From a virus (taxonomy: Duplodnaviria > Caudoviricetes), in IMG/VR virus record IMGVR_UViG_3300037697_000022, positions 1-36,303 of that record: DNA of 36,303 bases, one strand, 5' to 3'. The translations under genes were made by a program, and so were the position numbers. This document shows positions 4,125 to 23,590 of this stretch, one piece after another. The first letter of the stretch is position 1. Each line of letters begins with the position of its first letter. The notes under the pieces are model-generated. The model was not told where the DNA came from. It did no database searches and saw only the letters and a program-made list of their open reading frames with translations.

Positions 4125-4587
4125 GTACATGGTTGACGCCCGCGCTCGGGCGCTGGAGGAGTTCTCTATCGAGGCGGTCGCCTACGCCTGCAACCGCTTC
4201 ACCGGAGGCGCGATCACCGACCGCGACAACGCCTATCCCCCAACCTCAGCAGAGCTGGCGCGTGAGGCCCGTGGGTGGTTTGGTGAGACACCGACGCGCA
4301 GGATGGAGCTGCCGCCACCTGAAATCAATCTCACTCCAGAGGCGCGGGCGCGTATCGCAGCTGGTTTCAAAAAGCTGGGCGAAGACCTCGGCGCCCCGTT
4401 GAAGGCTAAACAGGAGGAGGAGGATGCTTTGTGGCGGGCCACCCTGCGGAAGCGGCATGACGCCATGATCGCCCGTGATCCGCGCCCGATCTTGGTCCGG
4501 CTCGGCATCCATCCTGACCTTGCAGACAATGAGGGATCGACGTATGATCCTCGGCAACCGGCAGATGAACCGGGCTCCAAGCAATAA
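4051..4587 (+). CDS. Putative helicase loader / replication accessory protein
   Basis: Overlaps the 3' end of the initiator gene; YPPTSAEL resembles the PxxAE motif of phage loader proteins; GAGG RBS before ATG 4051. Confidence 0.55.
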   Translation: MTKEQNAKQAMILAMLEGFNLPVNEYMVDARARALEEFSIEAVAYACNRFTGGAITDRDNAYPPTSAELAREARGWFGETPTRRMELPPPEINLTPEARARIAAGFKKLGEDLGAPLKAKQEEEDALWRATLRKRHDAMIARDPRPILVRLGIHPDLADNEGSTYDPRQPADEPGSKQ

Positions 4588-7178: not shown

Positions 7179-7352
7179 CTATGCCTCCTCCTGTGTTTCG
7201 TGCACCCGCTCGGCGATGAAGTCGGCGTACCAGTCAGCCCACTCCTCATCGCGCTTGCCCAGCTTGGCCTCGTACTTGGCATGTGCCGCCTCAGCTTCCC
7301 GCAACAGCACCGCCAGCTCGTCGGCGTCTTGAATCCTCAGCACCTCACCCAT
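7179..7352 (-). CDS. Hypothetical protein (57 aa)
   Basis: Not in the ORF track. MGEVLRIQDADELAVLLREAEAAHAKYEAKLGKRDEEWADWYADFIAERVHETQEEA; fills the gap exactly, with GAGGAGG RBS. Confidence 0.75.
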   Translation of the reverse strand: MGEVLRIQDADELAVLLREAEAAHAKYEAKLGKRDEEWADWYADFIAERVHETQEEA

Positions 7353-7565: not shown

Positions 7566-7576
7566 CTGTCCCTCCT

Positions 7577-7735
7577 TCACCAAAGGTTGAGGCTCATCCT
7601 GAGCCCGGTGCCCCAGATGATGACGTTGATCATCACCAACGGCAGCAGCGCCCATTCCCAATCGGCGCTCATGTACCAGCGCAGCTCCGATCCGAACCAC
7701 CGGATCACCCGCGCCTCGATCCTCTCAGTGTCCAT
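7577..7735 (-). CDS. Small membrane protein (52 aa)
   Basis: AAGGAGGG RBS before ATG 7735; hydrophobic WALLPLVMINVIIWG. Confidence 0.65.
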   Translation of the reverse strand: MDTERIEARVIRWFGSELRWYMSADWEWALLPLVMINVIIWGTGLRMSLNLW

Positions 7736-7791
7736 CTTTCCCTCCTTCGTGGGTCCGTCATCCGGGCGCGACTGGCGCCCGGCAAACTGAC

Positions 7792-8151: not shown

Positions 8152-8179
8152 TGTGTCCTCCTTTGTTTCCTACCCTCAC

Positions 8180-8209
8180 AATGTAGGGCCTGCGTCCTAC
8201 GGCGTCAAG
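8180..8209 (-). promoter_or_regulatory. Early-type promoter with GTAG-N10-CTAC palindrome
   Basis: TTGACG(8208-8203)-N17-TACATT(8185-8180). Confidence 0.85.
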
Positions 8210-8542: not shown

Positions 8543-8836
8543 TCAGCTCTCCTTTCCTTTTGCGATGGTCTGCGTCTCTGAGTAGCCGCGTGGCCATATG
8601 GCGAAGGCCACAACACCACGCAGCCAGACAGCGTCATCGGCGCCCTCGCCAAGCGAGGCGTCCATCGCCATGCTGGCGCCGGCCCACAGATCGAGGTTCA
8701 TCCTATCGACTGCACTCCCACCCATGACGCGGCCGGTGCGCTCCTTGTGCTGCCGCTTCTGCTCTTCAACCCGCGCTTCGATCCGAGCGGCGATGCTGAT
8801 CAGCAGCTCTTGGCGGCGTCCGTTGCTGTGGTCCAT
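8543..8836 (-). CDS. Hypothetical protein
   Basis: AGGAGGG RBS; packed in the operon. Confidence 0.7.
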   Translation of the reverse strand: MDHSNGRRQELLISIAARIEARVEEQKRQHKERTGRVMGGSAVDRMNLDLWAGASMAMDASLGEGADDAVWLRGVVAFAIWPRGYSETQTIAKGKES

Positions 8837-8837
8837 G

Positions 8838-8978
8838 TCAGTACCCTCCTGTGAGTTCGATGCGCCACCGGGCGCCGAACTGATCCGGGTAGGCTCGGAA
8901 GGAAACGCCCTCCCTAACCAGCCCGGCGATGATGGTGGCCAAGTCCTTCAACTCGATGTCCTCGATCACCTTGGTCAT
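8838..8978 (-). CDS. Hypothetical protein (46 aa)
   Basis: Not in the ORF track. MTKVIEDIELKDLATIIAGLVREGVSFRAYPDQFGARWRIELTGGY; GGAGG RBS; ATGA overlap. Confidence 0.7.
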   Translation of the reverse strand: MTKVIEDIELKDLATIIAGLVREGVSFRAYPDQFGARWRIELTGGY

Positions 8979-9516: not shown

Positions 9517-9537
9517 CTGTCCTCTCCTTTCATGCCT

Positions 9538-9567
9538 CATGTAGGGCACGCGCCCTACCCCGTCAAG
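9538..9567 (-). promoter_or_regulatory. Early-type promoter with GTAGGGC-N4-GCCCTAC palindrome
   Basis: TTGACG(9566-9561)-N17-TACATG(9543-9538). Confidence 0.85.
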
Positions 9568-10687: not shown

Positions 10688-10712
10688 CGTGTCCCTCCTT
10701 TGTGTACGCCCT

Positions 10713-10741
10713 AATGTAGGGCTTGCGTGCTACATCGTCAA
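10713..10741 (-). promoter_or_regulatory. Early-type promoter with ATGTAG-N10-CTACAT palindrome
   Basis: TTGACG(10741-10736)-N17-TACATT(10718-10713). Confidence 0.85.
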
Positions 10742-13438: not shown

Positions 13439-13699
13439 TTGCGCGGCGAGGGGCCAAAATGGCCTGTTTATTGCCCTACGTGTAAGCAAAATTATACCCC
13501 TAAATGGAGCGAAGAAATGAATTATGAGCGGTGGGCACAGCGGGTGCTCTTGCAAGCGGCCAAGCGCACCTCGCTGGTCAAGTGTCAGGAGTGCGACAAA
13601 CCCTTCATGGCGGGGTATCTGACCGGCAGGAGCCGTAAGGCCAAGTTCTGCTCTACTCAATGCCGCGTGCGCAGCTGGCGCAAACGCACCTTGCAATGA
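13439..13699 (+). CDS. Zn-finger protein with FCS motif (start uncertain)
   Basis: CQEC.KPF ... KFCSTQCR. Confidence 0.6.
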   Translation: MRGEGPKWPVYCPTCKQNYTPKWSEEMNYERWAQRVLLQAAKRTSLVKCQECDKPFMAGYLTGRSRKAKFCSTQCRVRSWRKRTLQ

Positions 13700-13719
13700 T
13701 CACCATCGTGCATCACATT
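13691..13719 (+). promoter_or_regulatory. Promoter of accessory module 1
   Basis: TTGCAA-N17-CACATT with CGTGCATCA abutting the -10. Confidence 0.6.
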
Positions 13720-13747
13720 GGTGCATCTGGAAAGGAAGGAACCACCA

Positions 13748-14041
13748 ATGAACAAGGAACGCATTGCCGCTGTGGCTGAGGCCATGAACGCCATCACCGA
13801 AGGTGTTGGCCATGTGCTGCACGATCAGTACGGGGACAGGATGACCCGTGAGCAGACGCTGGAAGCCATCGCCGGACTGTCGATGGCCACCGCCATGCTG
13901 TCCTCAGCCGTCATGAGCGGGGATCAGAAGAGCGCCCGTGATGCCGCCAGCGAAGCGCTGGAGATCGCCTTCGGCCACGCCGATGTGGTCATTCCCCTCT
14001 ACATGGAAGAAATGCAGCGGAGGATGAAGCCCGATGCTTAA
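13748..14041 (+). CDS. Hypothetical helical protein A1 (paralogue of 14676-14954)
   Basis: AAGGAAGGA RBS; shared GD..TR.Q..EA...GD...AFG. Confidence 0.75.
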   Translation: MNKERIAAVAEAMNAITEGVGHVLHDQYGDRMTREQTLEAIAGLSMATAMLSSAVMSGDQKSARDAASEALEIAFGHADVVIPLYMEEMQRRMKPDA

Positions 14042-14426
14042 GATCGATGTCGACAGGACAGTGGCCGATGTTGAGGCCGCCTTCCGGCAAATGGGCAAGG
14101 GTGAGGCTGAGCCGAGTCTCGTCCTGCAAGCCAAGCACGCTGATCTGGGTGGCCACCTCATGCGCTACTTCCTCGAACTGGAAGGCACCGACTATACGTT
14201 CGAGGATCGGATCGGAGCCCTCGCCGCCATGGTGGCCGGGACCATCGCCAACCTTGGGGATGAGCGCTCGCGCGAGTCCAACATCGCGGCCATCCTCTTC
14301 GTGCGGGCCTTCATGTCGGATATCGACCAGTATCGCGCGGCACAGGCTGAGGCCAAGGCCGGCAAGGGTCCGGAGAACGATAGCCTGTCGTTCGACGTGC
14401 ATCGCATCGACGTGGGTGACGCATGA
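14034..14426 (+). CDS. Hypothetical protein B1
   Basis: GGAGG RBS; termini resemble those of 15362-15784. Confidence 0.75.
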   Translation: MLKIDVDRTVADVEAAFRQMGKGEAEPSLVLQAKHADLGGHLMRYFLELEGTDYTFEDRIGALAAMVAGTIANLGDERSRESNIAAILFVRAFMSDIDQYRAAQAEAKAGKGPENDSLSFDVHRIDVGDA

Positions 14427-14623
14427 TCAGTGCCTCCACATTCCTCGTCGCCTTTGTGTTCGCCGTCCTCTACCTCGCTATCGGCGTGGTGGTGGACGTG
14501 GTGATCCATATCGCCCTCCCCATCGTCTATTGGGATCGGGACCACGCGATGAAGTCGCATGCAGTGGTCATCGTCACATGGCCCTATGTGGTGGTGCAAA
14601 TCATCCGGCACGGCGGCTTGTAA
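14423..14623 (+). CDS. Small membrane protein
   Basis: Two hydrophobic segments; ATGA overlap. Confidence 0.7.
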   Translation: MISASTFLVAFVFAVLYLAIGVVVDVVIHIALPIVYWDRDHAMKSHAVVIVTWPYVVVQIIRHGGL

Positions 14624-14646
14624 TCTGCCGCGCCGTGCATCATCTT
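14618..14646 (+). promoter_or_regulatory. Promoter of accessory module 2
   Basis: TTGTAA-N17-CATCTT with CGTGCATCA abutting the -10, as in module 1. Confidence 0.55.
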
Positions 14647-14675
14647 ACATCCAACCCCTGAAAGGAGGGACGGAT

Positions 14676-14954
14676 ATGAGCAAGTTTGAAGACAACGTGA
14701 GCCGGCTGGAGCGCAGCATTCACAACCTGATTATTGCGCACCTTGGTGACAACCCCACGCGTGATCAGGAGATCGAGGCGCTGTCAGCTATCTACAGCGC
14801 CTCTGCCGCCATCGCCTTGGCCTTCGCGGCCGGTGATCCCGTGCAGGGTGAGAAGTTCGCCCATGGTGGGATCAAGGCCGCCTTCGGCGACATTCGGGCC
14901 AGCGGCATTGGCGAGCGGTTGCGGCACGCGGTGAAGGAGGCTCGGAATGGTTAA
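14676..14954 (+). CDS. Hypothetical helical protein A2 (paralogue of 13748-14041)
   Basis: AAAGGAGGG RBS before ATG 14676. Confidence 0.78.
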   Translation: MSKFEDNVSRLERSIHNLIIAHLGDNPTRDQEIEALSAIYSASAAIALAFAAGDPVQGEKFAHGGIKAAFGDIRASGIGERLRHAVKEARNG

Positions 14955-15360
14955 GAAGATCGATGTTGAGAGGATGGCGCAGCTCATGCGCGAGGCTGTG
15001 GGCAACACCCCCATGCCCGAAGGGCTGAGCGAAGTGGATCGCGCCATCGTGGAAGCCGTCTTCGCCGCCTCCGAGGCACAGATCGGGCTCATGCGGTGGT
15101 GGGCCGGGCAGGCCAATGATGGAGTGAACCGCGACGTTATCGAGGCAGCTCTCGCCAACGTGCTCACCAATCAGATTCTCAACGCCGCGATGTCGCTCTA
15201 TGACTCGCCGCTCGAAGCAATCGAGTTCTGCCACAGCATCATCGGTGGCATGCCGATCTTGATGCAGCGCGGGCTCAAAGCCTACACCGGACAGCCTGAC
15301 GACAAATCCCTGATCCTCGGGAAGGGCGTCACCTATGTCCCCGAAAAGGAGGTTGACTGA
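14947..15360 (+). CDS. Hypothetical protein B2
   Basis: AAGGAGG RBS; N-terminus KIDVER resembles B1 KIDVDR. Confidence 0.75.
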   Translation: MVKKIDVERMAQLMREAVGNTPMPEGLSEVDRAIVEAVFAASEAQIGLMRWWAGQANDGVNRDVIEAALANVLTNQILNAAMSLYDSPLEAIEFCHSIIGGMPILMQRGLKAYTGQPDDKSLILGKGVTYVPEKEVD

Positions 15361-15361
15361 C

Positions 15362-15784
15362 ATGGTTTTGAAATTCGTGGATATCGACAAGTCGGTGGCG
15401 GAGATCGTCGCCAAGGGCGTGGAAGCGCAAAACAACCCTGACATGCCGGACTTCGCCAAGTTGCAAGCCCGGCTGCTGCCCATCCAAGCGGCGTTCGTGC
15501 GCGGCTACCTCGAAGAGCTGAACCGTGGCACAGACCTGCAAGAGCTGGTCACAGCCATGGGGCTCTCAGCCGGCACAGCGCTGTTCAACCTTGTGCGCAA
15601 CAGCGAGGCCACGGACGCGACGCCGGAAGGTGAAGACCCGACGCACCTCGCCATGCACCAAATGATCGATCTGGTGAGCCGCGCCATGCACGACGCGTGG
15701 AACTATGACCGTGGCGAAACCCCAGAGGGGATCGTCGGTGATGGCAACGTCGACTTCAACCGCAAGGAGGTGGGAGACGCGTGA
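15362..15784 (+). CDS. Hypothetical protein B3
   Basis: AAGGAGGT RBS; ends VGDA like B1. Confidence 0.75.
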   Translation: MVLKFVDIDKSVAEIVAKGVEAQNNPDMPDFAKLQARLLPIQAAFVRGYLEELNRGTDLQELVTAMGLSAGTALFNLVRNSEATDATPEGEDPTHLAMHQMIDLVSRAMHDAWNYDRGETPEGIVGDGNVDFNRKEVGDA

Positions 15785-15987
15785 TGCAAAACGACATGCA
15801 GGACAAGATCATCGAAGCCACCATCAAGCTGCAAGAGGCGGCCTATCGTGCCGGCTTTGCCGCCTGCAAGGCGGTGGCTCTCGAATGCGCCAGCGACATG
15901 CCCGAAGTCTTGCGGATCGCGGCTCTGAGCCCAGATGAGGATGAGCTGGCCCGTCTGCTGCGCCGGATGCGGGAGATGTCCAGATGA
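15781..15987 (+). CDS. Hypothetical protein
   Basis: GTGA overlap; operon continuity. Confidence 0.65.
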   Translation: MMQNDMQDKIIEATIKLQEAAYRAGFAACKAVALECASDMPEVLRIAALSPDEDELARLLRRMREMSR

Positions 15988-16184
15988 GCGAAACCAAGAT
16001 CGTCATCCTGCTCTCGCTGTCGGTCTTCTTCTTTATCCCGGTCGGGTTTGTCAGCCTCTGCGCGGTGTGGGTCAATATCGACAAGAACCAGTTCGAGAAA
16101 GCGGGGTGGTGGCTGGAAACGTCGGCTTACGCCATCGTCGGGTCGATCTTGGTCGGCTCCATGATTGAGCCATTCGTTGACTGA
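15984..16184 (+). CDS. Small two-TM membrane protein
   Basis: Two hydrophobic segments; ATGA overlap. Confidence 0.7.
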   Translation: MSETKIVILLSLSVFFFIPVGFVSLCAVWVNIDKNQFEKAGWWLETSAYAIVGSILVGSMIEPFVD

Positions 16185-16231
16185 TTCGGGCGCGTGCGCT
16201 TAGATGAGGCTTCCAACCAAAGGAGACTGAA

Positions 16232-16435
16232 ATGGCCAAGCTTCCGACTGTGGGCAGCAAGGTTCTCGTGCACCTCAAAAGCGGCGCCGTCGCCCCGGCC
16301 ACGGTGCTCAAACACAATGACGGCGGGCGCACGCTGGCGGTGAAGGTGGACAGCACCGGCGAGGTTCTGACCAGCCTTGGCGACATGGTGACGCCGCCGA
16401 GTCAGCCCTACTACGAAGTGCCGGTGAAGAAGTGA
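16232..16435 (+). CDS. Small beta-barrel-like hypothetical protein
   Basis: AAGGAG RBS; PTVG..V.V....PA.V pattern; possible promoter TTGACT at 16177. Confidence 0.72.
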   Translation: MAKLPTVGSKVLVHLKSGAVAPATVLKHNDGGRTLAVKVDSTGEVLTSLGDMVTPPSQPYYEVPVKK

Positions 16436-16746
16436 CCCGGCGCCGGGACGGACGCGGTCGGATCGTCGTCCTTACCCCTGACAACTTCGCCGACGCACCC
16501 CTGTCTGTCGGTGAGATCAGGGCCACCAAGGAACGCGACGGCAGCAAGTGGTCGCCGCGCGACGTGCTGATCGAAACCCTGCGGCTGATCGACAGCGGCG
16601 AGCTGGACTTGGATGTCTGCGTGGTGTGCTGGCGGACGAAGGATGATGGTGGGATCAGCTGGACGCAAGCCTCACCGGACTTTGACCTTTCTATCAGCGT
16701 GATGGCACAGGCGATGCACTCGCTTATTGACCGCTCAAAGGCGTAG
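16432..16746 (+). CDS. Hypothetical phage protein
   Basis: GTGA overlap; WSPRDVL...LR.ID.G. Confidence 0.7.
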   Translation: MTRRRDGRGRIVVLTPDNFADAPLSVGEIRATKERDGSKWSPRDVLIETLRLIDSGELDLDVCVVCWRTKDDGGISWTQASPDFDLSISVMAQAMHSLIDRSKA

Positions 16747-16761
16747 CTATAGATTGCCACC

Positions 16762-16841
16762 GTGCTCCTCCTCCTGAGCACTTGGCCCCGGCCCCGGCAG
16801 AGGGTTCAGCCCTCCTTTCCCCCTGCTGGGGCCACCTTTTC
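16762..16841 (+). ncRNA. Predicted cuckoo-like anti-Shine-Dalgarno sRNA 1
   Basis: Promoter TTGACC(16727)-N17-TAGATT(16750); hairpin GTGCTC-[CTCCTCCT]-GAGCAC; second hairpin (16790-16833) enclosing CCCTCCTTTCC; U-tract. Confidence 0.72.
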
Positions 16842-16865
16842 CCCCACCATCATGAGGCAAGTGTG

Positions 16866-16949
16866 ATGATGAGCTGGCAGGCCGCCTACTATTCCACCAT
16901 CACGTTTGTGGTCATCATCTTCTTGGCCACTGTCCTGTTCGTGTCATGA
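16866..16949 (+). CDS. Small hydrophobic peptide (27 aa, one TM)
   Basis: Not in the ORF track. MMSWQAAYYSTITFVVIIFLATVLFVS; GAGG RBS. Confidence 0.55.
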   Translation: MMSWQAAYYSTITFVVIIFLATVLFVS

Positions 16950-16959
16950 GGAGCAACGA

Positions 16960-17130
16960 ATGAGCGCAGCAGCATCAAAGCGCCGCCGCCGGCAGTACGC
17001 CAACGGCTTCGCCCACCTCCCTAAGCAGCGCCGCCCCGGATACAAGATCACCTCTATCGAGAAGGCCAAGCGCCGGCTCGAACAGGTGGTTGAAAAGCAG
17101 AAGGCCATGCAAAGGAGAAAGAAGGTATGA
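16960..17130 (+). CDS. Small, highly basic protein (56 aa)
   Basis: GAGGAG RBS; R/K-rich. Confidence 0.7.
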   Translation: MSAAASKRRRRQYANGFAHLPKQRRPGYKITSIEKAKRRLEQVVEKQKAMQRRKKV

Positions 17131-17318
17131 CGATTCGAGCGCACCTGAAGAACCCTGCTTATGCCGATGATGTCGGCATGATCAAGGTCACCATCGAACG
17201 GCTGGTCGGCGGCAAATGGGTCGCCGACGCCATCCCCACAATTCTGCCGGCTGGACCCGGCGAATTGCTGCTGACGATTGTCCCTGATCGTCGGTTTATC
17301 CTCGAACAGAAGGAATGA
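17127..17318 (+). CDS. Hypothetical protein
   Basis: ATGA overlap. Confidence 0.7.
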   Translation: MTIRAHLKNPAYADDVGMIKVTIERLVGGKWVADAIPTILPAGPGELLLTIVPDRRFILEQKE

Positions 17319-17322
17319 GGCT

Positions 17323-17595
17323 ATGAGCATGGACTACGCAAACGTTCTGGAAGCATTGAAGAGAGGCCATCGCGTGTCACGCGGCGGCTGGCCACGTGGC
17401 GATTATGTGGTGCTCGCCACCGGCGGCACCTTCAACATCGAAGGCCAGCCGATGGGAAATCTGGCACCCTTCTGCGTGCGTCACCGGGACGGCAAGTTCT
17501 ACGTCTGGCAACCCACCAACTACGACCAGCTCAGCGAGGATTGGGTGGCAACCCCGTTCGCGGAATATGTTGACGCACAGGCCGCCAGCGCCTAA
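17323..17595 (+). CDS. DUF2829 / Tad2-like (Thoeris anti-defence 2-like) protein
   Basis: MDY..VLEALKRG.RVSR.GW ... WQPT..DQLSEDW matches the DUF2829 consensus MxFxxAlxxlkxGxkvxRxgW...WxPsqxDxLAxDW. Confidence 0.8.
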   Translation: MSMDYANVLEALKRGHRVSRGGWPRGDYVVLATGGTFNIEGQPMGNLAPFCVRHRDGKFYVWQPTNYDQLSEDWVATPFAEYVDAQAASA

Positions 17596-17604
17596 TCTGG
17601 CGTC

Positions 17605-17741
17605 GTTCACGTAGTAGGGAACTTAGCACGGACTTGCGAACCTGCCCTGATCCCGCGATAGGCGTCTCGCGACCTCAACAGCGGATGCAAGTCAGGGTGG
17701 ATGAACCCTCCAGAGGCTGACGCTCCTCTGGGGGGTTTTCT
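17605..17741 (+). ncRNA. Predicted structured ncRNA 2 (~135 nt)
   Basis: Promoter TTGACG(17570)-N17-TAATCT(17593); several helices; terminator AACCCTCCAGAGG/CCTCTGGGGGGTT-TTCT (17704-17741); no credible ORF. Confidence 0.68.
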
Positions 17742-17776
17742 CTTGAACTGTGCAGCATGGTGACGTATATATCTGC

Positions 17777-17869
17777 AAGGCCGTGCGGGGCTTTCCTCCT
17801 CCCTTGTCCTCGCGCGCCTTAATGGAAACTTGGGGCTGGACCCTGCGACTCCTGTCCAGCCTCCTTTTT
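17777..17869 (+). ncRNA. Predicted cuckoo-family (CCUCCUCCC) sRNA 3
   Basis: Promoter CTTGAA(17742)-N17-GTATAT(17765); hairpin 17777-17820 with loop TTTCCTCCTCCCTT; terminator hairpin 17832-17863 plus T5. Confidence 0.75.
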
Positions 17870-17877
17870 CCCCGAAT

Positions 17878-17965
17878 AGCGCGGCAATCCCCCCGCCGCG
17901 CTCGAAGGATGGCCGGCGGCGATGTGGCGCCCCCCAGAAGCTAGCCCGCCATCCTTCACTCTTCC
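17878..17965 (+). ncRNA. Two further hairpins with C-rich loops (sRNA 4 or late-operon leader)
   Basis: AGCGCGGC-[AATCCCCCC]-GCCGCGCT; GAAGGATGGC(17904-17913)/GCCATCCTTC(17948-17957). Confidence 0.45.
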
Positions 17966-18033
17966 CTTCCCCACGATCCCGGTGTATCAAAGCGATTGCG
18001 TGAGGCGCGATCAACCTTTGAGGGATTCCGCAG

Positions 18034-18387
18034 ATGGCAGTCCGTAATGCGGCTCATGGCGCCTCCACCTCCGCCCACGCCAAAAAGCTGACGTGGTCCG
18101 GTCTGTTGAATACCGACACCGGCGACCACCAACTCCTCCCCTTCTTCAATGACCGCTCGGTGCAGGTGCTCGGCACCTTCGGCGCCGGCGGAGAGGTTAG
18201 CCTCGAAGGCAGCAACGACGGCGGAACCACGTGGGCGATCCTCAGCGATCCTCTCGGCAACGCCCTCACCTTCTCCGCTGCCGGGCTCAAAGCGATCTCG
18301 GAATACACCGAACGCATTCGGCCGAACGTGACGGGTGGCGACGGCACCACCGACCTGATCGTTGTCGTCTTCATGCGGGGGAGCTGA
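18034..18387 (+). CDS. Putative virion accessory beta-sandwich protein
   Basis: VQVLGTFG...V.LEGSNDGGTTW..L.D pattern; GAGGG RBS. Confidence 0.65.
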   Translation: MAVRNAAHGASTSAHAKKLTWSGLLNTDTGDHQLLPFFNDRSVQVLGTFGAGGEVSLEGSNDGGTTWAILSDPLGNALTFSAAGLKAISEYTERIRPNVTGGDGTTDLIVVVFMRGS

Positions 18388-18389
18388 TC

Positions 18390-18941
18390 ATGCTTAAGAA
18401 GCCACAGCCGCTCTCGGCGGCAGAGAAGACCGAACTGAAAGCCGCCATCCGCTATGTGCAGGATCATGCGCAGCAGATGCGGGCGGTGCTCACCATCGCC
18501 GACAAGATCAGCGATCTCTCGCAGCTGGAACGGATGGCCACCGAAGCGCAGGCCATGCTTGATGCCAAGGCGGTACAGAACGCTGAGCTGGACAAGAAGC
18601 GCGGCGTGATCAACGCCGATATCGAGGCGCTGTCCAAGCGGGCGGCGGAGCGCCGGGAGCTGACCAAAAAGGCGGAGCTGGAAGCTGAGGAGGAGGTGGC
18701 GGCGGCCCAACGCCGGGCGCTTGCTGAGGCCGGTGCCATCATCAACGAGGCCAAGGATCGGGCCAAGGCCAAGGCCGACGCCATCGATCTCCAAACGGCG
18801 GAGCTGGGGATGCTGGACGGTGAGATCGCCAAGCGGTTGAAGCAACTGAGCGACATTGAGGCAATGGTGGCGGAGGCTGAGCAGAAGCTTAAGCGCGCCG
18901 AAAACTACCTCAAAAAGCTGGCAGGTGGCTCCGATGGCTAA
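18390..18941 (+). CDS. Coiled-coil protein
   Basis: A/E/K/L-rich heptads; GGGGAG RBS before ATG 18390. Confidence 0.72.
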   Translation: MLKKPQPLSAAEKTELKAAIRYVQDHAQQMRAVLTIADKISDLSQLERMATEAQAMLDAKAVQNAELDKKRGVINADIEALSKRAAERRELTKKAELEAEEEVAAAQRRALAEAGAIINEAKDRAKAKADAIDLQTAELGMLDGEIAKRLKQLSDIEAMVAEAEQKLKRAENYLKKLAGGSDG

Positions 18942-19350
18942 TGCAATCTATCCGGAATACAAGGAATTTCTGCTCTCAGCGTCGGCCAACGTGTCGCTGA
19001 ACGTCGATGATACCACCGATGGCCCATTCGTGGCCTTGGTGGACACCGGCACCTACACCTACTCGGCCGCGCATGACTTCTACAGCGACCTGAGCGGCGT
19101 CGTCGGCACCGATCAACGGATCGCCACGCCCACCGTGGCCGATGGCACCTTCGATGGCGACAACGTCACCTTCACCGCTGTGTCCGGCGCCACCGTCGAG
19201 GCGTTGGTGATCTACCGGCACAACGCCGGCGCCAACACCACGTGGAAGCTGGCCGCCTTCATCGATACCGGGCAGACCGGCCTGCCGGTCACACCCAACG
19301 GCGGCGATATCACCGTCAGCTGGAACGCCTCGGGGATTTTCACGATATGA
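18934..19350 (+). CDS. Phage structural/fibre-associated protein
   Basis: MANAIY...FD.D.VTF..V.G...EALVIY...LPVTPNGGDITVSW...GIF, a pattern recalled from phage accessory structural genes. Confidence 0.7.
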   Translation: MANAIYPEYKEFLLSASANVSLNVDDTTDGPFVALVDTGTYTYSAAHDFYSDLSGVVGTDQRIATPTVADGTFDGDNVTFTAVSGATVEALVIYRHNAGANTTWKLAAFIDTGQTGLPVTPNGGDITVSWNASGIFTI

Positions 19351-19670
19351 GCGACACCAAGGACCCGCTGCTGCTGGCCACACCCACCGCACAGCGCGAG
19401 CTGTTCAAGCGGATGAGCCGGGCTTGCGATGGGTTCTCGACCGAGGACGCCATCGGCGCCGCCGCCAACGTGATGATCAACGCCATCCGGCAGGCACACC
19501 CGACGCGCCGGAAGGCTGAGGTGCGGTTCGATGAGCTGTTCGGCCGGCTCAAACAAATCTTGGTCGACCACTATGAGAGCGGTGGGCGCAAGAAGGGCGT
19601 GTTCCCGTATCCGCAGGTGATCCAGATGGAACGGTTCGACGCCCGCAACAGGTTCGGCGACGAGAAATGA
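19347..19670 (+). CDS. Hypothetical protein
   Basis: ATGA overlap. Confidence 0.7.
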   Translation: MSDTKDPLLLATPTAQRELFKRMSRACDGFSTEDAIGAAANVMINAIRQAHPTRRKAEVRFDELFGRLKQILVDHYESGGRKKGVFPYPQVIQMERFDARNRFGDEK

Positions 19671-19671
19671 C

Positions 19672-20271
19672 ATGCCCTTGGTCGATTTCGATGACCCAGC
19701 CGTCTGGGACTCGCTCTACAGGTGCTGGTCGCCAGATGGCACGACGCTGCTGCACTTCGAGCGTGGCGCCAAGGAGCGTATTCTCGGCAATGACCACTGG
19801 CTGCTGAGGGACGCGCTCAACCTCCAGCCGGGGCAGAGCATCGGGCTCATCGGCGCCGGCTATGGATGGGTCGCTGAGGATTGGGCAGCGGACGGCCTTG
19901 GTCCAATCGTCGCCGTCGACACCTCCACCTACATCCAGTCGAACAAGACGCTGCACGCCACCGTCACGATCCTTGATGAGGACGGAACAAGCAATCCCTC
20001 ACGCGGGCGGATCAGACAGGCGCTCGGGCTCAGCGGTAACCGCAAGGCGGATTGGGGGATCACTGAGGATATCCTGCCGGGGATGACCGATGCAGAGTGC
20101 CTGACCCTCGCCGGGCATATGCGCAACCTCGCCACCACGGTTGTGCATTGGGTGAGCGCGCTGAAAGCGCGCAATCAGGACCCGCGCCTCAACTGGAAGA
20201 CGCTGGAAGACTGGAAGGCTCTGATGACGCCTGATCTCGTGGTGCAGCGCGGCACCAATAGGGTGCTCTGA
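19672..20271 (+). CDS. Hypothetical protein, possible SAM-dependent methyltransferase fold
   Basis: L.LQPGQSIGLIGAGYGW (GxGxG-like), then IVAVDTS. Confidence 0.55.
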   Translation: MPLVDFDDPAVWDSLYRCWSPDGTTLLHFERGAKERILGNDHWLLRDALNLQPGQSIGLIGAGYGWVAEDWAADGLGPIVAVDTSTYIQSNKTLHATVTILDEDGTSNPSRGRIRQALGLSGNRKADWGITEDILPGMTDAECLTLAGHMRNLATTVVHWVSALKARNQDPRLNWKTLEDWKALMTPDLVVQRGTNRVL

Positions 20272-22730
20272 TGGCCCTGCCGACTGACATTTCTGCCCTG
20301 CTTGATACAGCAATAGCTGGCCCTTTTATGTCCAGCGCCGGGAACGTTTATGTTTTTGGCAGGAGTGATGCTGCCACCGATACGTTGCGGGCGATCAAGG
20401 CGACCGATCCTACGTCTTCGTTCTCAGCTGTTGGCAGCGATCAAGACCCATACAACCTCTTTTTGCGTGGCGTTAGTGCTCACCAAGTTGGCGATGTCAT
20501 TCATATTATTGGGAATTTTCATAGCAGCGAGAGCGCTGTCTCTTATCGTTATCTGACCTTTAATATGGCCACTGACGCATGGGTGATCTCAGAAGATATT
20601 GAAACTGGTTTGGACATAACGCCTGCAAGCAATACTGATCCGAGCCTGTACCCAGATATAACCGTCAGATCAGATGGCGATGTCATAGTCGTTTATAATG
20701 GTGAAACCGACGCGATCAAGGGGACATCATACGCCCGCATTAAATACGCAAGGCGTGAGGGCGGCACATGGACAACCAACATTGCTGTGGATGCAGGAGG
20801 ACAGCTTGACTACTCCTTCTCCAGAACAACTCTCGGGTTGGATGACAGGGTGCATATATTCTGGCGTCAACTGGAAAAGACTTCACTCTTTCATAGGACG
20901 CTAAGCAGTGCCAACGTATTGCAAGCCGGCAGCGAGTTGTTGGACGCGTTTGACATCAGTACAAGCAGTTCAGTAAATAATAACGCATACTACTCCGCTT
21001 ATTCGTGGGATGACGGCGGGACGATTAGAGTTGCGGCGATTGGCATAGCGTCAGACGACGTTACAGATGCTCAACCAGTATATTTTGATAGTAGTTTCGA
21101 GCCAGCACTGAATAAGGGCACAGCATTTGGTACAAGCCTCAAAGGAATGCGGTATTGGCATGATGACGATAAGCTATACGTCATCTACGCGTCATCGCCA
21201 AGCAACGACCTATTTATCGCTGCGTCAACGGACAACGGAGCCTCGTTTGGCACCGCGACAAACATATATATGGGGACAGTACATGCGAGCTGGCTTAATA
21301 CGCTTAAAGAACCGGGAGAAGTATATATTCGTGGGGGAAACTATGTTGCTGGTTACATAACGACAGAGGGTATCTCCGACAATAAATATAATGAAGCTAT
21401 TCTACGTGCGGCGACTGGCACACAGAACATCGACGGCGCCCTCTTCACCAACACAAACACCTTCTTCGGGGCGACGGTGTCGACGGGCGCTGTCACGATC
21501 AGCGGTGCACTGTTCACTGACGGTGACACCTTCTTCGCCGCGACCGTTGCGCAGTCCACCACGATCCTCGGTGCGCTCTATGCCGATGACGACACCTTCT
21601 ATCAGTCAGTCGTCACCGCAACCTACGCCATCGCCGGCGCCCTCTATTCGGACGCCGACGCCTTCTTCGGCGCCACGATCTCCTCGTCGTACACGATCAG
21701 TGGGGCTCTGTTCTCGGATGCCGATGCCTTTTTCGGGGCCACAATCGCGCAATCGACCACCATCCTCGGCGGGCTCTACAGCGACGATGACACCTTCTAT
21801 CAGTCGACCGTCGCGGCCGGCACAGTCACCATCACCGGATCGTTGTTCTCAGATGGGGACACGTTCTTTGCGGCCACAGTGGCGCCGGGCGTTGCCACGA
21901 TCTCTGGCGCCCTGTTCGTGGATGGGGACACGTTCTATCAGGGCCACGTCGCCAATGTGATCAGCGGCGCCCTCTACAGCGATCCTGACGCCTTCTTCGC
22001 TTCCACCACTACCGCCTCCTACACGATCAGCGGTGTGCTCTATGCCGACGCGGATGCGTTCTTTGCGGCGACGATCTCCAGCACCTATGCCATCACCGGG
22101 GCGCTCTACACCGACGCCGACACTTTCTTCGAGGCCACCATCGCGTCTGGGTTCGTGATCGAGGGCGCGCTGTTCACCGATGGCGACACCTTCTTCGGCG
22201 CGGCGCTGGCCTATACCATCAACGGCGTGCTCTACACCGACGATGATACGTTCTTCGCGGCGACCGTGTCGGCCGGCGCCAGCCCACAAACCATCGACGG
22301 CGCGTTGTTCGCGGATGGGGACGTGTTCTTCCAAGCGGCGATCACGGCCGCCTACACAATCGAAGGCGCCCTCTACGCGGACGCGGACACCTTCTTCGAG
22401 GCAACCCTCTCGCATGGCCTCAGCGGCAACCTCTACGCCGACGATGACACCTTCTTCGCCGCCACCCTCACCACGACCGTCACCGTCACCGGCGCCATCT
22501 TCGTGGACGGGGACACCATCTTCGGGGCCACCGTCGTCTCGATCTACGGCGTCGACGGCGCGCTGTTCGTGGACGGCGATGCGTTCTTTGCCGCCAACCT
22601 GACCGCCGCCAACACCATCGACGGCGTCCCCTACACCGATCCTGATATCTTCTATGGGGCGGAAGTCGTCGGCGGCCTTCCGAGCGCCGGCGGTGGTGGC
22701 ATGCACTTGTGGGAGCGTCGCGGCCGATAG
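20271..22730 (+). CDS. Fibre/adhesin-like protein: N-terminal BNR-type domain plus 19 tandem ~22-aa repeats
   Basis: Asp-box STDNGASFG; repeat consensus IxGAL(F/Y)xDxD(T/A)FFxAT. Confidence 0.8.
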   Translation: MALPTDISALLDTAIAGPFMSSAGNVYVFGRSDAATDTLRAIKATDPTSSFSAVGSDQDPYNLFLRGVSAHQVGDVIHIIGNFHSSESAVSYRYLTFNMATDAWVISEDIETGLDITPASNTDPSLYPDITVRSDGDVIVVYNGETDAIKGTSYARIKYARREGGTWTTNIAVDAGGQLDYSFSRTTLGLDDRVHIFWRQLEKTSLFHRTLSSANVLQAGSELLDAFDISTSSSVNNNAYYSAYSWDDGGTIRVAAIGIASDDVTDAQPVYFDSSFEPALNKGTAFGTSLKGMRYWHDDDKLYVIYASSPSNDLFIAASTDNGASFGTATNIYMGTVHASWLNTLKEPGEVYIRGGNYVAGYITTEGISDNKYNEAILRAATGTQNIDGALFTNTNTFFGATVSTGAVTISGALFTDGDTFFAATVAQSTTILGALYADDDTFYQSVVTATYAIAGALYSDADAFFGATISSSYTISGALFSDADAFFGATIAQSTTILGGLYSDDDTFYQSTVAAGTVTITGSLFSDGDTFFAATVAPGVATISGALFVDGDTFYQGHVANVISGALYSDPDAFFASTTTASYTISGVLYADADAFFAATISSTYAITGALYTDADTFFEATIASGFVIEGALFTDGDTFFGAALAYTINGVLYTDDDTFFAATVSAGASPQTIDGALFADGDVFFQAAITAAYTIEGALYADADTFFEATLSHGLSGNLYADDDTFFAATLTTTVTVTGAIFVDGDTIFGATVVSIYGVDGALFVDGDAFFAANLTAANTIDGVPYTDPDIFYGAEVVGGLPSAGGGGMHLWERRGR
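21429..22670 (+). repeat. Coding tandem repeat, 19 degenerate units of about 60-75 bp
   Basis: Recurrent GGCGC(C/G)CT(C/G)T(A/T)C...GAC(A/G)CCTTCTTC; unit count read from the translation. Confidence 0.9.
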
Positions 22731-22735
22731 GGCCA

Positions 22736-22764
22736 TTGACAACGTAGTGCTGACGTCCTACATT
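22736..22764 (+). promoter_or_regulatory. Early-type promoter with GTAG-N10-CTAC palindrome
   Basis: TTGACA(22736)-N17-TACATT(22759); same architecture as 8180, 9538 and 10713. Confidence 0.82.
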
Positions 22765-23320: not shown

Positions 23321-23371
23321 CAGAATGGGAATATAAGCCTCGCCAAAGGAGGGATGATGTGAGGCATCCCC

Positions 23372-23590
23372 TTGGCAGAAGTTATCAGGGCGCAGTCCTG
23401 CAAGAGCTGCAAATTCTACAGCGTCGTTGGCGGAGGGCCTGAGTGCCACCGCTTCCCACCCGTCACCCAACTGTTCCTCGCCGCCGTGGATCAGAAGGGT
23501 AAGCCCACCTTCAATCGCGCCACCACCTTCGCCGCCACTGAGCCGAACGCTTGGTGCGGTGAATACCAACGCTCGCTGATGTCGTCATGA
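23372..23590 (+). CDS. Small Cys-rich phage protein
   Basis: CKSCKF...CHRFPP...WCGE. Confidence 0.72.
   Translation: MAEVIRAQSCKSCKFYSVVGGGPECHRFPPVTQLFLAAVDQKGKPTFNRATTFAATEPNAWCGEYQRSLMSS

Follow-up and report, generated by a model that had tools for sequence, protein, structure and literature searches.

Genomic setting and predicted structure of the candidate RNA

The window, by which we mean the whole stretch of DNA analyzed here, is a 36.3-kb virus record from an uncultured soil and sediment phage, with an estimated completeness of 68%. Among its 74 proteins, PHROG hits identify head, portal, and tail genes that are podovirus-like. Relatives of its terminase are found in Rhizobium, Pelagibacterium, Beijerinckiaceae, and other alphaproteobacterial genomes (14 of 19 loci), and it is therefore likely that the phage has an alphaproteobacterial host. 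On the basis of position, 73 window genes were assigned to four sets, namely replication (9), leftward small (20), rightward middle (23), and late or structural (21), where the terms early, middle, and late are our own labels based on gene position and PHROG hits. The candidate RNA lies in a 119-nt gap between a middle-operon gene that ends at 16746 and a small open reading frame (ORF) that begins at 16866. This region is present in 18 sequencing runs, all of which are DNA runs and are uninformative on expression. Contigs from five other DNA runs (X2, X3, X4, X6, and X7) carry all or part of the stretch with 0 to 1 differences, and thus the stretch encoding the candidate RNA is not an assembly artifact.

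Positions 16762 to 16841 are non-coding and fold as two hairpins (Table 1) that are collectively more stable than 200 of 200 shuffled sequences (z -4.02). Because the reverse strand also folds well (z -3.56), folding does not by itself choose between the strands. The promoter assigned to the element is the sole promoter-like site found in 13500-19500, a count that is non-significant by itself because shuffled sequences give 1.5. Going by its consensus, we take this promoter to be housekeeping-like and unlike a late promoter. An Rfam scan of the window produced no gathering-level hits, and only three unrelated weak hits were obtained for 16600-17000.

Fold predictions indicate that the loop of hairpin 1 is unpaired (p >= 0.99) in the short RNA. 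Two conformers are predicted for loop 2, since a GAGGG in the same hairpin can pair with its CCCUC. As a result, CCCUC is predicted to be mostly closed (16-31% unpaired) when the 5′ end lies at 16760-16763, and to be largely open (about 80% unpaired) when it lies at 16755. Self-pairing of loop 2 may reach about 80%, and the predicted cost of opening 8 nt within it is 0.5-1.5 kcal/mol (about 1.5 with a 5′ end at 16760-16763). One X7 contig carries the change G16796A (depth 2.7, possibly an error), which converts a G-U pair of the open form to A-U. The pyrimidine tail that follows hairpin 2 is a possible weak terminator or 3′ end, and it received no score in terminator prediction.

Several other features of the region and its surroundings were recorded. 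The small operon just 3′ of the candidate RNA encodes a Tad2-like anti-defense domain (PF11195, E 6e-15) at 17323-17595 (+). The 438-nt gap at 17596-18033 (+) contains several more hairpins, and a near-perfect terminator-like stem at about 17704-17740 resembles one located 5′ of the gene 18034 homolog in the related phage G001, which is described below. Gene 20271-22730 (819 aa) carries about 14 imperfect 66-nt (22-aa) repeats at 21421-22670 (+). At 23354-23590 (+), a strong ribosome-binding site (RBS) is followed by ATG ATG TGA, and this stop is in frame with an ORF whose G001 homolog is intact. Possible explanations for this arrangement include a pseudogene, readthrough, a two-codon uORF, or an assembly error.

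Table 1. Coordinates of the predicted RNA elements and of loop-complementary sites in the window
Feature	Position	Strand	Details
Sigma-70-like promoter, TTGACC-17-TAGATT	16727..16755	+	Predicted start near 16762
Hairpin 1, 6 bp	16762..16781	+	Loop CUCCUCCU at 16768-16775; extendable to 16756-16786
Hairpin 2, 15 positions, 14 paired	16790..16833	+	Loop 16805-16818 with predicted seed CCCUCCUUU
Pyrimidine tail ending CCCCCACCA	16834..16849	+	Same 9-mer in G001, 23 nt after the CTCCTT of the loop
Predicted target: RBS of gene 14676	14660..14669	+	10/10 nt with loop-2 10-mer; itself partly folded
Predicted target: RBS of gene 15362	15345..15352	+	8 nt
Predicted target: RBS of gene 10687	10693..10701	-	9 nt; -13.1 kcal/mol after accessibility; first gene behind early-type promoter
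Predicted target: RBS of gene 9516	9524..9531	-	8 nt; first gene behind early-type promoter
Predicted target: RBS of gene 8541	8549..8556	-	8 nt
Predicted target: RBS of gene 8151	8157..8164	-	8 nt; first gene behind early-type promoter
Predicted target: RBS of gene 7735	7740..7747	-	8 nt; best site after accessibility, -14.1 kcal/mol
Predicted target: RBS of gene 7565	7570..7577	-	8 nt
RBS of gene 7178, complementary to loop 1	7184..7193	-	8 open nt plus closing pair
Loop-2 match in late region, behind gene 22790	23345..23353	+	9 nt
Second candidate RNA	17777..17875	+	Canonical CCUCCUCCC loop at 17795-17803; z -4.10 on +, -0.80 on -

Loop matches among the ribosome-binding sites of the window phage

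A preliminary description of this DNA held that the candidate RNA mimics the tail of 16S rRNA and matches RBSs of the phage's own early genes. The individual matches it quoted are all real. A loop-2 10-mer (16810-16819) is the exact reverse complement of the site before gene 14676, pairings of 9, 8, and 8 nt occur before genes 10687, 7735, and 7565, and 16767-16776 fits the site before gene 7178. The quoted list left out the 8-nt matches at genes 8151, 8541, 9516, and 15362, as well as 23345-23353 and a loop-1 match at 4411 that lies inside a gene. The 10-nt loop-1 match is present and includes the closing C-G pair, such that only 8 nt (16768-16775) are open; at 8 nt, loop 1 matches one of 73 RBSs, that of gene 7178. 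As the same description stated, terL and the portal gene have no site comparable to that of the capsid gene, with pairings to loop 2 of 4, 3, and 6 nt, respectively, and the capsid gene pairs 7 nt with the loop-1 10-mer. When accessibility is counted, the RBS of gene 14676 falls outside the 14 best sites.

Four promoters of one early type, each with a GTAG-N11-CTAC inverted repeat between the boxes that is likely an operator, are located at 8181-8208, 9539-9566, and 10714-10741 (-), and at 22736-22763 (+). Three of these drive leftward genes, whereas the fourth belongs to gene 22790 within the late region. The first gene behind each has a 7-9 nt match to loop 2. The site at 23345-23353 would break a clean division between early and late genes unless the 22790 unit is expressed early.

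Pairings of at least 8 nt with the loop-2 10-mer occur at RBSs of 6 of 20 leftward and 2 of 23 middle genes, and at none of the 9 replication or 21 late genes. For the same four sets, the 16S tail gives 6, 3, 0, and 0. Pairing energies of the window loops track those of 16S (Spearman 0.71-0.86), and among the 73 window genes no early/late difference is left after regression on 16S energy (residual p 0.27-0.64). Only 8 of 52 non-late genes bear the full match, versus 0 of 21 late genes (p 0.095, or p 0.43 if 23345-23353, which falls outside the 24-nt span used for gene 23372, is counted). A G after AGGAGG, which sets the window tag apart from 16S pairing, shows a non-significant enrichment (6/18 versus 21/130, p 0.10). 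With accessibility included, the pooled comparison of non-late and late genes gives p 0.30 in the window, where four late-region sites are within the best 14, and p 0.002 in G001, and the comparison of own loop with other loop gives p 1.4e-4 in the window and p 0.063 in G001. Because the 16S tail separates early and late genes equally well, a generic anti-Shine-Dalgarno (anti-SD) loop is a possible reading of the window genome taken alone. For this genome, the initial caution that any anti-SD sequence matches strong RBSs was well placed.

A relative with a different loop and a correspondingly different tag

The closest relative found is G001 (locus L189; 56 kb, complete), which emerged from a search with a profile of gene 18034. 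It has 27 of 72 window proteins in common and in the same order, with identities of 67% for the terminase, 60% for the portal, and 71% for the capsid protein. An element is present at the same middle/late gene junction, with a promoter (TTGACC-16-TAGTAT), a hairpin 1 loop AACCCUCAG, a hairpin 2 loop UAUCUCCUUC, and a fold z of -6.03. Its tail lies at the same spacing from CTCCTT as in the window. Aligning the two stems on loop and tail leaves 14 of the 15 positions paired in the two phages alike, 8 of them with both sides changed, but this count presumes the register and any two hairpins in register would give double changes. Sequence alignment places the G001 element outside the top 6 of 5596 G001 windows, and nhmmer does not find it. 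Since plain sequence comparison fails to single the element out, its orthology rests on synteny, promoter, tail, and spacing, and we treat it as a putative positional ortholog. Small hydrophobic ORFs flank the element in both phages, one of 27 aa on the 3′ side in the window (16866-16949, +) and one of 65 aa on the 5′ side in G001 (L189 8846-9043). The complement of the G001 loop-1 8-mer is located inside the 65-aa ORF at 8931, one of 7 copies in that record.

Loop 2 of G001 differs from that of the window and contains UCUCCUUC, the complement of which is GAAGGAGA. In G001, 80 genes were called and 5 were left out of the module sets, leaving 46 non-late and 29 late genes (75 in total). GAAGGAGA is found before 16 of the 46 non-late genes and none of the 29 late genes (p 1e-4), with one late gene having another 8-nt match. 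When the loops are swapped at a threshold of at least 8 nt, the window loop matches 8/52 of its own non-late genes and 0/46 of those in G001, whereas the G001 loop matches 16/46 of its own and 0/52 of those in the window. A 10-nt 16S probe pairs at this threshold with only one of the 75 G001 genes. Independent of gene calls, GAAGGAGA occurs 21 times in G001: 19 copies lie before a start codon (18 of them in the non-late part, and one within the portal gene), one is without a start, and one is the hairpin loop of the element itself. Eight other records contain 0-2 copies. The G001 loop 8-mer ranks first of 3054 8-mers with an anti-SD core and first of 134 that are all pyrimidine; the window's three loop 8-mers score 4, 4, and 3, where the best score is 5. 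Calling genes without SD weighting gives non-late versus late values of 12/48 versus 0/31 for G001 and 8/46 versus 0/23 for the window.

These motifs are scarce elsewhere. Among 402 RBSs in seven related records that do not have the element, GAAGGAGA is absent and window tags occur 8 times, compared to 8/70 in the window (p 8e-4). Among 2360 genes at 113 related loci, which are mostly late regions, the G001 and window tags yield 13 and 17 occurrences, respectively. Five alphaproteobacterial genomes (24.8 Mb) that contain related prophage genes served as proxies and are not the hosts themselves. They carry AAGGAGGG-ATG 69 times (2.8/Mb) and GAAGGAGA-ATG 267 times (10.8/Mb), versus own-tag densities of 138/Mb in the window (5 sites) and 232/Mb in G001 (13 matches at 12 sites). 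The window tag is therefore about 50 times and the G001 tag about 20 times less dense in these proxies. All five have the canonical 16S tail that had been quoted for alphaproteobacteria, with which loop 2 has 9 nt in common.

Tagged genes are early and middle genes and, in G001, also replication genes, and structural genes are nearly all without the tag. Thus, loop 2 follows each phage's own RBS tag and not the 16S tail, a pattern better explained by silencing of its early and middle genes than by host shut-off. The initial suggestion that the phage's own RBSs are targeted gains from the relative, whose different loop fits its different tag, while the window alone adds nothing over 16S. Mimicry of 16S rRNA becomes the weaker reading, given that the G001 loop departs from the 16S tail. 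Host shut-off is disfavored because both tags are rare in host-like genomes. The early-to-late switch that was also suggested would fit the location of the tagged genes. The support for targeting derives from one evolutionary comparison that is strong in G001 and modest in the window. For loop 1 of G001, no called RBS yields a match of at least 7 nt, giving no sign of tag tracking by this loop. The role of loop 1 is probably secondary, as an anti-SD seed of a more generic kind.

Additional searches covered other relatives. About 40 terminases of the clade are present in the protein collection, and a clade-specific terminase scan recovered only G001, G006, and G007 at >=66% on the stretch searched. 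No such element is found in G006 (41% complete) or G007 (complete), and the latter has no dominant tag (best 8-mer in 3/71 genes). The G007 terminase (47055-49439, -) has 794 aa and is split in the alignment, which would be consistent with an intein. Of 142 distinct loci with a gene 18034 homolog, L189 is the only one with an anti-SD hairpin pair just upstream. An exact search for hairpin 1 among viral contigs gave no hits, genes 18390 and 16432 retrieved no relatives as queries, and blastn of 16600-18100 against phage records gave a single 30-nt chance match. A two-motif pattern returned 120 loci from 14 of 64 parts of the collection, with both motifs in loops at 2 of the 120. A descriptor search over 525 sequences proved lossy, as it recovered the G001 element and missed that of the window.

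Two candidate interpretations were set aside. A strong cuckoo-like hairpin pair in a prophage record (L009 of G002, 2282-2362, +; z -7.26) is at a similar distance from terL, but lies over the 3′ end of an ORF and has no matching tag, and was rejected as an ortholog. The notion that loop 1 is merely the reverse of a real leftward RBS was rejected, as the 150-aa antisense ORF from 16760 has a codon score of -47, although its frame is not clearly closed in homologs.

A predicted silencing RNA, its alternatives, and known systems

We consider it close to, though short of, an even bet that 16762 to about 16850 encodes a small two-hairpin RNA whose loop 2 pairs with the shared RBS tag of the phage's own early and middle genes and blocks their translation. 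Transcription would begin near 16762 from the promoter at 16727-16755, and the 3′ end would fall near 16850. Loop 2 would then seed pairing in trans over the SD sequences of tagged mRNAs and exclude the ribosome. With a housekeeping-type promoter, the RNA might accumulate during infection and gradually damp the tagged genes, perhaps acting as a timer, and their repression would help to shift ribosomes to the untagged structural genes. More tentatively, and with somewhat greater doubt, we speculate that phages write a private code into the RBSs of an early gene class that one short RNA reads, and that loop and sites are retuned together between relatives.

The same pairing could instead be used to prevent lytic gene expression in carriers or lysogens, and to exclude superinfecting relatives that bear the same tag. 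A housekeeping-type promoter and quick divergence of loop and tag would suit such an immunity code, relatives at a greater distance are prophages or integrase carriers, and the C4 RNA of P1/P7 offers a precedent (PMC12197685). We nevertheless find this unlikely, since C4 acts on a single operon and the present tag is spread over many small genes, no tyrosine integrase is present in complete G001, complete G007, or the 68% complete window, and no resolvase is present in any of five records searched, a set that excludes the window. It is similarly improbable that the element is a cuckoo-like anti-SD RNA directed against host mRNAs or strong RBSs generally, in which case the matches to early genes would simply follow from their strong SDs. 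The 9 nt in common with the verified 16S tail, the tracking of 16S energies with no residual, and a loop 1 that is one base off the cuckoo motif all fit this idea, and host-like genomes each hold 4-37 and 24-120 tag-like sites. However, it leaves unexplained both the exact loop complement before 35% of G001 non-late genes and the 20-50-fold tag excess over host-like genomes, and a host-silencing phage should avoid the complement. Furthermore, a better candidate for that role is the second RNA, which has a true cuckoo loop and whose G001 counterpart finds no 8-nt match among the 75 RBSs of its own phage. This second candidate lies behind a promoter-like site (17742-17770) and has an ar14 score of 17.1 bits (gathering 58.8); its G001 version (L189 9491-9602) comprises two hairpins followed by tRNA-Met and scores 22.3 bits.

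An effect solely in cis, with the hairpins serving as a structured leader or attenuator of the small-gene operon 16866-17595 or as a middle-operon terminator with incidental C/U-rich loops, seems to us no less doubtful than these two proposals. In favor of such a role, a short U/C run comes after hairpin 2, and GAGGC and a start codon lie a little beyond the tail in each of the two phages. In addition, if the transcript is taken to end at 16980, its 5′ end forms 8 nt of pairing with the gene 16960 RBS. This last pairing is gone in longer folds (to 17140 or 17745), however, and the genes 3′ of the element are unrelated in the two phages. A terminator loop also has no reason to match a genome-wide RBS tag at rank 1 of 3054. 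We give still less credence to a scheme in which a phage protein or the ribosome recognizes the tag and the hairpin is a decoy, or in which the RNA aids initiation. The start-associated sequences (SAS) of cluster K mycobacteriophages, which mark non-structural genes and were left open as RNA or protein sites (PMC3203893), would accommodate another reader. A protein decoy, though, would carry the tag itself and not its complement, and by established mechanism, an SD core that is paired is normally closed to the 30S subunit.

The element can be compared to several known systems. The primary CcsR locus adjoins a conserved small-protein gene (DUF1127), and a search for DUF1127 (PF06568) found it in 0 of 3 records, including the 68% complete window. 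NfeR1 is described as repressing by occluding RBSs with its anti-SD loops (PMC10746234). Like the cuckoo or alpha-r14 RNAs (NfeR1, CcsR1-4; RF02344, RF02791; PMC4615179, PMC10746234), the window element has adjacent hairpins, variable stems, open anti-SD loops, predicted RBS occlusion, and an alphaproteobacterial setting. Its two hairpins are within the 2-4 typical of that group. In contrast, CCUCCUCCC, expected in every cuckoo loop, is not in either of its loops: loop 1 reads CCUCCUCCU, with one mismatch and its first base paired, and the seed of loop 2 departs as well, as do both loops of G001. Unlike those of cuckoo RNAs, the loops differ from each other, change between phages with the phage's own RBS motif, and are phage-encoded. 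RF02344 and RF02791 give no gathering hits in the window, and neither is among the three weak hits for 16600-17000. Judged by sequence, the element would share the mode of action of cuckoo/alpha-r14 RNAs but falls outside their group.

Phage precedents are also informative. According to a 2025 review, phage sRNAs act on single phage operons or host genes, and C4 of P1/P7 is an antisense RNA that controls an antirepressor mRNA through loops that pair in trans near an RBS of the phage itself, with differences between relatives setting specificity (PMC12197685). C4 has this single antirepressor target, whereas here one seed fits a tag on 8 to 16 scattered genes. The window contains no match to Rfam C4, and no antirepressor is among the PHROG hits of the 74 proteins of this 68% complete record. 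The SAS is a 13-nt motif that is found at non-structural genes only and is rare in the host; its reader was left open, and a single opposite-strand copy is present in four genomes (PMC3203893). The tags described here are likewise extended, phage-specific RBS motifs, seen at 16/46 versus 0/29 genes in G001 and more weakly in the window (8/52 versus 0/21, with the exception of 23345), and are 20-50 times rarer in five proxy hosts. They differ in length (8-9 nt versus 13 nt) and in having a candidate reader RNA in the same genome. The RBS tag would thus work like the SAS, and it is not the SAS sequence itself. PtaRNA1 (RF01811) has a similar two-hairpin layout, and the G001 element scores 20.9 bits with its model, well short of the 47 bits required at gathering level, and the window element does not match this model. 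A type I antitoxin would be expected to overlap a toxin-like gene on the opposite strand, and none overlaps the window element; the 27-aa hydrophobic ORF runs in the same direction as the element, and pairing with its RBS is limited to 4 nt. Our survey of open-licence literature found no phage RNA matched to a class-wide RBS tag of its own.

If real, such an RNA would add a translational layer to phage timing and provide a testable reader for SAS-type motifs (PMC3203893). It would also bear on whether anti-SD RNAs act globally or selectively, a question raised for the cuckoo/alpha-r14 group (PMC4615179). It would constitute an RNA-only, reprogrammable switch for a gene class, with potential use in developmental timing or as an immunity code, and possibly a reader of start-associated sequences. 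The two natural loop-tag pairs are a ready swap system for examining these proposals.

Finally, hairpins of a different kind are found in late-operon gaps of the more distant relatives G003 (~22755, -) and G004 (~20715, +; L017 17047-17145). Each presents a UUGCCUC loop just 5′ of a GAGGCA ribosome site and is possibly a cis anti-SD element. In G004, a second loop, ACUCCUCCC, follows the UUGCCUC hairpin.
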